This document shows, in pieces, positions 26,084 through 29,000 of a stretch of 64,000 nt of DNA. The translations under genes and the position numbers were made by a program. The notes below the pieces were generated by a model, which saw only the letters and a program-made list of their open reading frames with translations, was not told the origin of the DNA and ran no database searches. The DNA lies in assembly GCA_964016885.1 (NCBI GenBank), contig OZ024755.1, positions 4,340,001-4,404,000 of the forward strand. Reading direction: 5' to 3'. The DNA is from Eledone cirrhosa (lineage: Eukaryota). Numbering within the stretch: position 1 is the stretch's first letter; every line of letters starts with the position of its first letter.

Positions 26084-29000
26084 TCAAGATTCCTTATTTG
26101 GTATCCATAACTGGGATGATATCATTAGGTGGTCTGAAGGATAAAACTCTTCAGCCATAACACGGAAAATAGTTTGCAACGTACCTGAGAAGATGTAAGT
26201 AATGACTGTGTAGAAAATAAGATTTGAAACTATGCAAACTAAAAGGAAAGGCAATGGTGCTTTCATAAATGGAAAAATCCTGTAGAGTACTCGGAATTTA
26301 GAATAGGCCATTGTACTGAAGTATAGCCGTATACTGTACAGACAGTGAAATGTTCTTATTGATAGCCGACTAAAGAGAAACAATATCAGTGCTAGTAGAG
26401 TTATGGCCATTAATAAACATGCAAAGAAAGTCAATAAAATAAAAAGTAAAAACATCAAAGAATTACATTCTGAACAGTCTATGAGCAGACAATCCTTTTG
26501 ATTGCCAATATTAACACACACACCACACCGACACGAACCATGAGGACCACAATCTTGGGTGCAACTATAGCCAGACAACCCTTGGAAACATTCATATGCA
26601 CTTTTAATTACTCTTTGAAATCGATGCCAAAATATCAGCAGCTTGTAGTTCTTCTTATATAAAATACCATTGCCATGGAGATTACTGGATAAAATCTTGA
26701 AATTCTTGGAAACAAGTATCCTATCTGGACGACTTTCATAACCAGGAGTTGGCTAAAAATATAAGAATAGAAAATAAATAGGATTACTAAGGTTTTATAC
26801 TATTAATCCCATCTTTAGAGGTGAAAATCTTTAATGTTTTAAAGATGAGATTAATTGAAATTTCATTCAATATAATGTTTATTTTAAAAAGCATATTTCC
26901 ATGTTAGTATAAACATTTATGGATATTTAAAGATATTTAACCCTTTAGCATTTACATTACTCTATATATACTATTGTATTTTCATGGTAACGGCTTTATC
27001 TCATAATATTGAATCTATGAGATTTTGATATTATTTATTTTGAGAACAATAACTTAACATAAGTATGAGTGGCTGATTTGAATAGAAAGAAGTGAGAGAA
27101 TCCTGGCCGGATATGACCGGTTTAAATGCTAGAGGGTTAAGCATGGAAAATAAATGTTAAACGATGGTGATGACAAGAAAAAACTTATAATTTACACAGA
27201 GATAAAATTGTTTTCTTACCATGTTACTGAAAGTGAATCCTGATAATTTATCTGCTGAGTGTACACTCCAAACATCTGCAAGAACAGTATTTGGTCCTTT
27301 AGCTTCAGATCTCACCATGTCAAAGCAAAAATTTTCAGGTCGAATTTCTGTATCTGTAAACACTTCCAAGGGCCATTCAAAATCCTGGTAGGTGTTAAAA
27401 TCACCAAGAAGTACAACATTTTGCAGTTCTTTTTCTATCAGTAAATAAAAAAAAAATAAAAAGATATTTTATTATTTTTTTTTTTATTAGAAAAGAAAAA
27501 AAAACATTCGAAAGCAATAAATTTGCCATTTTTAAATGTTTCAGAAAGTTATAATTTTTTTTTACAATCACATATGTCAAGATAGATATAGTAGGTTGAA
27601 TTAACCCTAGTAAATAACTGGTACTAAGTTCCTCAAACCAGAGTTTATTTAACAGGGTGAACTGGGTGTTTTTTTTGGCACCAAAACAACCACCTTACAG
27701 GGTGGGCTGGGTGCTAATTGTCGTAGCACCAAAACAGCCACCTTAAGTATATCGATTTAACTTCAATGGTTTCCTAGCTGTTCATCTTTGATGATTTTTA
27801 AAGTTACAAATAATGTAAAATGTCAATTTAACTCACCAGAAATTATCTACATGGAATGTAGAGGGCACATGGCTTAGTGGTTAGAGTATTGGGCTTGCAA
27901 TCAAAAGGTTGTGAGTTCAATTCTCTAACCGGGTGATGTATTGTTTCCTTGAGCAAGAGACTTTATTTCACATTGCTCCAGTTTACTCAGCTGTAGAAAT
28001 GAGATGATAGGACTGGGGTCTCTATCATTCCACGGCAAAAAAAAAGCACCCAGCCCACACTGTAAAGTGGACGTATAGGCGCCACGGCAAAAAAGCACAC
28101 AGCACTCACTGTAAATGAGGTTGGTGTTAAGAAGGGAATCCAGCTGTAGAAATCAAGCCAGAATCAGTTCCTGTATGAGCAAGACAAGGACAACCTGTCT
28201 AACCCATGCTAGTGTGGAAGAACAGACGTAAAACGGTGATGATGATGATGAATATGTTTAGATTTTTTGAAGAACATATAAGAAAAGAAAGGTTTGTAAA
28301 CTGACCTGATATGTAGTGTAATATTCTAGCAGCATTATTGCACTGTTGTTGTCTGTCATAGGAAAAATGAACAGTAAGAACATGAATGGCATGATCTTCA
28401 CTATAACCTATCATAGCATGAAGAGCAATCCTTTGATTTGTGTCAGGTCCACTCATATATGGAATACTGATAGTTGTGGATCTAAGTATTGGTAACTTGC
28501 TAAGAATACCAATGCCTGTAAGTAGGAGTAGAAAGATGAGTAGGACATGAAACTGAATAAAGATAGAAAAATACTAATACCTTACAAGGTGGACTGAGTG
28601 TTTTTTATTGTGGTGTCAGCAATACCATTTTACAAAGTGGACTAGGTGCATTTTACTATGGCATCAACACTTCCTCTTTACAAAAACGGTGTGTCCTTGA
28701 TCAGGCTGGAGAGGACTAGGGAGGGTTGTGTGTATATAAGTGAGAGGCGATGCTGGCTACATATATATATAATACAAATATGTCACAAAACTCCTATAAT
28801 ACCTTCTCGTTCCCATCCATTCCAATATGTATGTTTTGGTTTCTGTACATCATTTGCTGGTTGAACCACCATCCAGTTAAAATCTGCAAGTTTTTCTTGT
28901 AACTCTAACAGTTGACTTCTAACGCTGCTGGAATCCATTCGAACTTCTTGGAATGCTATGACATCAGGATTAATAGTTTCTATCTGAAGCAGAATAAAAA

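Follow-up and report, generated by a model that had tools for sequence, protein, structure and literature searches.

The window, a stretch of 64,000 nucleotides from Eledone cirrhosa contig OZ024755.1, carries on its minus strand a five-exon gene for an EEP protein (Table 1). The last exon reads without a stop from the motif RPDRILVS through a Cys-rich stretch of 17 residues and two hydrophobic stretches to a C-terminal motif of 11 residues. Exons 1-4 were located upstream of it by tblastn with P0001, an uncharacterised Octopus vulgaris protein of 477 residues that is the closest protein to the one encoded in the window (89% identity); residue numbering is common to both. The coding sequence of 1434 nt specifies 477 amino acids without internal stops, and all introns are of the GT-AG type. 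In one 2084-nt contig (run X21) the five exons are joined with 0 other letters between them, and three of the four joints were seen in a contig of a relative (run X15). No joint inside exon 5 was present in contigs of runs X21, X22 and X17, of which one was DNA-like and two were spliced; spliced contigs were used as evidence of presence only. Exons 4 and 5 each gave one match in the genome, i.e., the gene is single-copy as far as searched. Because exon 5 alone is matched by 38 longer proteins at E≤0.001, its reading frame is not a product of chance. A gene-model artefact was ruled out by the model itself, the five-exon spliced contig and the unbroken exon 5 in the contigs. In three contigs with divergent members (L005, L012 and L030) open frames break at the FSNM/PxPG site, which is the place of the octopus exon 4/5 intron, and this suggests that the intron is old and common to divergent members.

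A ubiquitin C-terminal hydrolase gene (PF00443; 17161-21992, plus strand) with two large open frames lies tail to tail with the EEP gene; its first frame starts hydrophobic, and the product may be membrane-anchored. Exons of the splicing factor Prp18 (PF08799, PF02840; 34944-38434, plus strand) are arranged head to head with the EEP gene. Further features are exons of a TBK1/IKK-epsilon-like kinase (53022-59382, plus strand; Pkinase and TBK1_ULD matches), a tandem array at about 6560-8060 with a period of about 112 bases, visible as repeated translations, and a 172-codon open frame at 40550-41065 (plus strand) that has no Pfam match and resembles a fragment of a retrotransposon endonuclease.

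Table 1. Features of the EEP gene in the window
Feature	Position	Strand	Content or basis
Exon 1, aa 1-53	30937..31095	-	predicted signal peptide, first strand with YNLWN (N35)
Predicted signal peptide, aa 1-28	about 31095-31012	-	cleavage inferred from pattern
Exon 2, aa 54-113	28803..28983	-	FQEV with predicted Mg ligand E66
Exon 3, aa 114-183	28306..28515	-	D138-x-N140-x-R142, H163, C172
Exon 4, aa 184-255	27220..27434	-	GDFN (D195, N197), C220, start of family loop TFSNM
Exon 5, aa 256-477 and stop	26084..26752	-	insert, SDH, last strand
Codon of D265 (RPD)	26723..26725	-	Asp pairing with the last His in EEP enzymes
Helix A, aa 284-311	26585..26668	-	second half amphipathic; Y287, invariant R299; constant part of the insert
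Eight-Cys module, C319-C351	26465..26563	-	most conserved region
Predicted transmembrane helix 1, about aa 354-378	26384..26458	-	hydropathy; model helix 353-390
Basic loop, predicted cytosolic, aa 379-419	26261..26383	-	charge counts
Predicted transmembrane helix 2, aa 421-442	26192..26257	-	hydropathy and model
Acidic return segment, aa 444-459, E456-E457	26141..26188	-	charge counts
PSDH and last beta-strand aa 465-471	26105..26140	-	H463 at 26131-26129; closes EEP sandwich in model

Catalytic core and insert

The protein is an EEP member by profile, by residues and by predicted fold. P0001 matches the EEP profile PF03372 with 50.4 bits, against a curated cut-off of 24.5, and all 38 members match it at E≤0.1. 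On P0001 the match extends to position 211 of the 225 in the profile and does not reach the insert or the His, which would help to hide the family. For residue counts we used 55 full-length rows that were selected to hold both motifs, with five others left out as duplicates or divergent. The catalytic residues are kept: N35 in 44/47 rows, E66 in 52/53, H163 in 52/54, D195 in 54/55 and N197 in 52/55. D265 is present in 55/55, the rows having been selected to hold the RPD motif. The two core cysteines C172 and C220 are likewise found in 55/55 rows; together with the eight-Cys module, this residue pattern fits an oxidising compartment. The loop TFSNMPxPG (251-259) is nearly invariant, yet it is the least confident part of the modeled core, with pLDDT below 50 at most positions of aa 248-258 (26743-26752 and 27220-27234, minus strand). 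It may be a mobile substrate loop.

The order of domains is a predicted signal peptide, the EEP core, helix A, the eight-Cys module, two hydrophobic helices, EE-x-x-PSDH and the last strand. The initial annotation gave a gap of about 190 residues between RPDRILVS and the SDH motif, and we counted 189. From D265 to H463 the spacing is 198, against about 26-59 in insert-free relatives. The Cys-rich module and the two long hydrophobic helices that the same annotation placed in this gap can both be read in the exon 5 translation and in a hydropathy scan.

The Cys module was found in 128 of 214 search matches. An SDH-type motif occurs near the end in 115 of these 128 (113 SDH, 1 SNH, 1 GDH), and P0090 carries SDH with a longer tail, giving a total of 116/128. 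The remaining 12 look truncated, breaking off early or running into unrelated sequence. Conservation of the motif in homologues, which the initial annotation named as a test of its reading, is thus borne out, and an acidic pair shortly precedes it in 115/115 rows with a terminal SDH-type motif. R299 of helix A is present in 55/55 full-length rows. That the insert interrupts an EEP fold holds here and in many homologues, but not with all its parts throughout the family. There are relatives that lack the Cys module and relatives that lack the hairpin; the sole invariable parts are helix A with R299 and the acidic pair ahead of SDH. P0061, a protein that groups with hydrozoans, lacks E66, H163 and D195 as well as the Asp of SDH. 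Such a joint loss is what one would expect of a motif that forms part of the same site, and from its sequence P0061 is likely a pseudo-enzyme paralogue. Another His in place of that of SDH was considered and rejected, since His 281 of the window protein is not conserved.

The structural model is an AlphaFold prediction of the orthologue P0001 from a 38-row alignment (pLDDT 88.4, pTM 0.84; pLDDT 91-92 for aa 451-470). The predicted structure contains the DNase I-type sandwich, last strand included. VIA-align superimposed model residues 26..473 on residues 1..261 of 3g6s with Z 26.2 and an rmsd of 3.0 (238/261 aligned), and gave Z 25.3 with TDP2 and Z 24.4 with human neutral sphingomyelinase (8j2f). 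Because the alignment spans entire chains, the last strand of the model appears to replace the last strand of the solved EEP enzymes. The prediction thus agrees with completion of the sandwich by the C-terminal strand, which the initial annotation had named as a check.

At the start of the insert, a modeled strand at aa 274-281 precedes helix A. Helix A is helical in both models and has a hydrophobic moment of 0.54 for aa 294-311. The Cys module has the highest conservation (mean 0.69) and, when folded alone with helix A, reached pLDDT 92.8. It probably holds four disulfides; placed between helix A and membrane helix 1, it may be a spacer or a lid held together by these bonds. No Pfam match was obtained for exon 5, a search in which small domains can be missed. 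A PDB sequence search with the module returned a single chance-level match (E 0.083), a fold search of 48,161 chains gave a best VIA Z of 3.0 that was driven by the helix, and there was no Foldseek match at E≤10 and no usable Atlas match. No clear sequence or fold match to a known small disulfide domain, EGF-like ones included, came out of these searches, which by itself does not make the fold a new one.

Membrane topology and range of the family

A Kyte-Doolittle scan of the window protein gave three hydrophobic segments, at 5-23, 354-372 and 424-442. The first supports the signal peptide proposed in the initial annotation, and a hydrophobic lead is predicted in 42 of the 45 homologues with a lead. 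By simple hydropathy, which could score 92 of 103 proteins, the insert contains two hydrophobic segments in 79 homologues, one in 4, three in 1 and none in 8. The number is odd in 5/92 rows, and by hydropathy the even helix number on which the earlier topology depended prevails. P0001 itself gives three segments with a shorter hydropathy window, probably due to its long first helix. The insert of P0129 lacks a hydrophobic segment, and P0162 lacks one over its whole length, insert included.

By the positive-inside rule, a basic loop is expected in the cytosol and an acidic return segment in the lumen. Over 55 rows, the loop between the helices contains 418 K/R vs 73 D/E, and the return segment after helix 2 contains 36 K/R vs 197 D/E. 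This charge asymmetry across helix 2 points to a cytosolic loop and a luminal return. N-glycan sequons occur at 0.21 per 100 residues in the loop vs 0.33-0.46 in the luminal parts, a separation that is not clear. Since two predicted membrane-spanning helices interrupt the fold, the protein likely acts on the luminal or outer side of a membrane, and we consider a luminal or outer topology with an intact catalytic site highly probable. P0092 and P0128 lack the hairpin and retain an N-terminal hydrophobic anchor, so that tethering persists without it.

Some database models differ in this region. The hairpin is skipped in P0052 (Elysia crispata) and P0060 (an old Nematostella model), and P0059 (Octopus bimaculoides isoform X2) stops before the insert. 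In the RefSeq Nematostella model P0103, unlike in P0060, the hairpin is present. The three models are possibly mis-predictions, or else soluble or inactive isoforms; no joint that skips the hairpin or drops the insert was present in runs X21, X22 and X17.

A word-limited profile search returned 93 proteins, 51 of them with a species name. We take these species to be molluscs, annelids, a brachiopod, hemichordates, echinoderms and cnidarians, with no chordate, arthropod or nematode, which suggests within the scope of that search that the family was lost in the latter three groups. An exhaustive search gave 3998 matches, of which the best 150 were analyzed, with name look-ups for 20 rows. Among these best 150, helix, Cys module and hairpin occur together in animals and in the choanoflagellates Salpingoeca urceolata and Codosiga. 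The helix with a short hydrophobic hairpin and no Cys module (spacing 93-107) is found in Phalansterium, Cavostelium, Soliformovum, Luapelamoeba and Physarum, presumably all amoebozoans. Helix and Cys module without hairpin characterize P0092, P0128, P0129 and P0162, some of which we assume to be from protists. The helix alone is present in Spironema (spacing 52), and many proteins, mostly with N-terminal anchors, are insert-free, e.g., P0093 of Ceratiomyxa (spacing 33). P0092 is a single open frame on a contig where its neighbours carry introns and are of eukaryotic type. As judged from these sequences, the insert is ancient and modular.

A quick core-only tree (LG+G4) of 49 hand-picked rows placed the 24 insert-bearers on one side of a branch with SH-aLRT 92, and the insert required 1 change on it vs a mean of 16.7 after shuffling. 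This tree is compatible with a single origin of the insert without proving it. P0092 and P0128 fall among the choanoflagellates (89), a position that suggests a later loss of the hairpin. A first quick tree of 87 rows, with P0113 skipped and some rows poorly cut, did not unite all insert-bearers. With narrow patterns, no prokaryotic or viral member was confirmed among 23 matches in genome_contigs, 21 in viral_contigs and 1 further match obtained with P0092. Two proteins carry other domains in the EEP core before the RPD motif, a thioredoxin in P0063 and an SH3 in P0160; these are either real or assembly chimeras.

Databases list the family members as uncharacterised, and searches by gene id and by architecture, which covered mostly open papers without their supplements, found no paper on the family. 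On the sequences and the predicted model, the family is a real and conserved, apparently undescribed architectural variant of the EEP superfamily, with a predicted function.

Relation to known EEP enzymes

The catalytic set corresponds to that of the neutral sphingomyelinases SMPD2/Isc1. By motif and spacing, N15, E49, H136, D178, D238 and H272 of SMPD2 correspond to N35, E66, H163, D195, D265 and H463, and hSMPD2 mutants of N15, E49, D178 and H272 are reported to lose activity (PMC10682184). Two transmembrane helices are described in the same source, and the fold score is the Z of 24.4 given above. The helices of SMPD2 follow a finished catalytic domain (34 residues from D238 to H272), whereas those of the octopus protein precede H463. 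The pair D111-K116 of SMPD2 is not matched, as judged by spacing only: D138-x-N-x-R142 of the octopus protein has R for K and a spacing of 4 instead of 5, and stands at a comparable distance from H163, 21 residues before it vs 20 in hSMPD2 (PMC10682184). The octopus protein further differs from SMPD2 by its predicted signal peptide and its Cys module. Placement of the octopus protein among the neutral sphingomyelinases is not supported.

Bacterial sphingomyelinase C (B. cereus SMase, SmcL) resembles the octopus protein in having a membrane-contact element in the loop directly before the catalytic His; in B. cereus SMase the membrane-binding residues W284/F285 lie 11-12 residues before H296, as described in PMC9710629. 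In the bacterial enzyme, which is soluble, this element is a short aromatic beta-hairpin, whereas in the octopus protein it comprises about 175 residues with a helix, the Cys module and two predicted membrane helices. A protruding late loop is also reported for EEPD1 and bacterial SMases (PMC12988330, 2026). The bacterial SMases had lower fold scores against the P0001 model (Z 21-22), and their profile TIGR03395 matched 1 of 38 members (E 0.054), a score that did not reach the family cut-off. The same profile gave no match in a genome search for a separate sphingomyelinase gene, a search in which the controls gave none either.

The best fold scores (Z 25-26) were obtained with the Bacteroides EEP proteins 3G6S and 3MPR and the mannosyl-6-phosphatase BT3783 (4C1R). 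Their sequence similarity to the octopus protein is weak, located in the first motifs and about 20% identity, and each consists of one compact, insert-free domain of 261-298 residues. Cwh43/PGAP2IP and GlcNAc-PDase are EEP domains that, like the proposed octopus enzyme, act outside the cytosol on lipid- or glycan-linked phosphodiesters (PMC7125958, PMC10704324). In the accessible parts of these sources, GlcNAc-PDase has no transmembrane segment and no insert inside the fold is described for either. P0001 scores 16.4 bits with the Cwh43/PGAP2IP profile PF23226 against a cut-off of 27; 7/38 members match at E≤0.1 (best E 1e-5), and two protist relatives, P0112 and P0117, reach the cut-off. The octopus protein is assigned to none of the SMPD2/Isc1, bacterial SMase and Cwh43/PGAP2IP families, although its mode of action may be similar. 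The fold Z does not separate substrates, since nucleases, TDP2, deadenylases, mannose-6-phosphatase and nSMase1 all score 24-26.

Candidate functions

The best explanation, which we hold with evenly balanced confidence, is a Mg-dependent phosphodiesterase of the luminal or outer membrane face with an intact catalytic set, most likely cutting the phosphate-linked head group of a lipid or glycolipid. The predicted signal peptide would send the core into the lumen, the chain would cross the membrane twice and return, and the SDH strand would then close the sandwich. By motif correspondence with hSMPD2 as described in PMC10682184, N35 and E66 would hold Mg, with D195 joining the metal network, H463 backed by D265 would activate water, and R142 would stand in for the lysine with which sphingomyelinase binds the phosphate; one Mg ion and the His-activated water would cut the phosphoester. 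The insert sits in the loop that bears the reported membrane-binding hairpin of bacterial sphingomyelinase, and by analogy may be an expansion of that loop into a full anchor, which would hold the active site against the bilayer. A pocket at the bilayer favours a lipid or glycolipid substrate. The pair E456-E457 could bind an amine head group such as aminoethylphosphonate, ethanolamine or choline, or could pair with R299.

A sphingomyelinase-like lipid substrate is the corresponding hypothesis. Ceramide aminoethylphosphonate is described as a major lipid of molluscs and cnidarians, while crabs are reported to have sphingomyelin and not this lipid (PMC8708635). Five exon-sized matches of the PEP mutase profile TIGR02320 in the genome, each under the cut-off (C28:98777037-98811946, minus strand), are PEP-mutase-like exons pointing to possible phosphonate synthesis in Eledone cirrhosa. 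Ceramide aminoethylphosphonate is a candidate substrate because of this distribution and these exons. The occurrence of the family in echinoderms and hemichordates does not obviously fit such a phosphonolipid, which the available text of PMC8708635 does not report there. In its most specific form, the proposal is of an ancient eukaryotic EEP family whose chain passes twice through the membrane before the active site closes, which acts as a phospholipase C for ceramide aminoethylphosphonate or related amine-capped glycolipids, which was kept in molluscs, cnidarians and many protists and lost in chordates and arthropods, and whose disulfide module has an undescribed fold; taken as a whole, this is unlikely.

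With the same topology, the protein could instead act on glycans in the Golgi or at the cell surface, as a phosphatase or phosphodiesterase that frees glycoproteins or GPI cores of phosphate, aminoethylphosphonate, phosphoethanolamine or phosphocholine, which we consider somewhat unlikely. Removal of phosphocholine from GlcNAc by an EEP enzyme has been described (PMC10704324), and such glycan modifications are described as widespread in non-vertebrates (PMC6994554). Many insert-free relatives, mostly with N-terminal anchors, look like type II proteins of the secretory pathway, and two of them have glycan-related Pfam domains (MGAT4A_C in P0214, a weak PAN match in P0179), which favours a glycan substrate. 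The top fold rows include the Bacteroides EEP proteins and mannosyl-6-phosphatase (4c1r, Z 25.2), but such differences in Z are ties. Moreover, a terminal anchor would suffice for a glycan enzyme, whereas a hairpin near the catalytic His suggests a substrate at the bilayer.

An ecto-nuclease or nucleotide phosphatase for cell-surface scavenging or signalling, again with the same topology, is quite unlikely. No lipid enzyme outscores TDP2, CNOT6L or nocturnin in the fold comparison, and there are weak matches to the bacterial membrane nucleases MnuA and ExeM; the latter are below cut-off, as all NCBIfam scores are by far, and the acidic segment adjoining the active-site His suits DNA poorly. 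Very unlikely is a Cwh43-like exchange enzyme that would move a phosphate-linked head group from lipid to lipid in the ER and not to water. Conversion of GPI anchors to the ceramide type is reported to require Cwh43, a protein whose C-terminal region corresponds to PGAP2IP (PMC7125958). The PF23226 matches in the family agree with such a role, but the score of P0001 stays below the cut-off and no PGAP2-like part was seen in the protein. CxCxxC and CxxC patterns can bind zinc, the topology rests on hydropathy and charge, and some database models stop before the insert or skip the hairpin, but a cytosolic core with a zinc-binding Cys module, an inactive protein with an SDH remnant or a gene-model artefact is extremely unlikely given the five-exon spliced contig, the insert within one exon in DNA and spliced contigs, the signal-peptide-like leads, the basic inter-helix loop, the catalytic residues conserved from choanoflagellates to octopus and the hairpin of Nematostella P0103.

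Among the EEP enzymes of this comparison, a membrane anchor is either terminal to the catalytic domain or a short surface hairpin. The predicted anchor of the octopus protein passes the membrane twice and interrupts the fold just a few residues ahead of the catalytic His, so that assembly of the active site would depend on membrane insertion. The existence of natural deletion variants without the hairpin, without the Cys module or without the insert makes structure-function tests simple. If the lipid reading is true, the protein, which is conserved from choanoflagellates and amoebae to octopus, would be a candidate turnover enzyme for a major lipid class of marine invertebrates.
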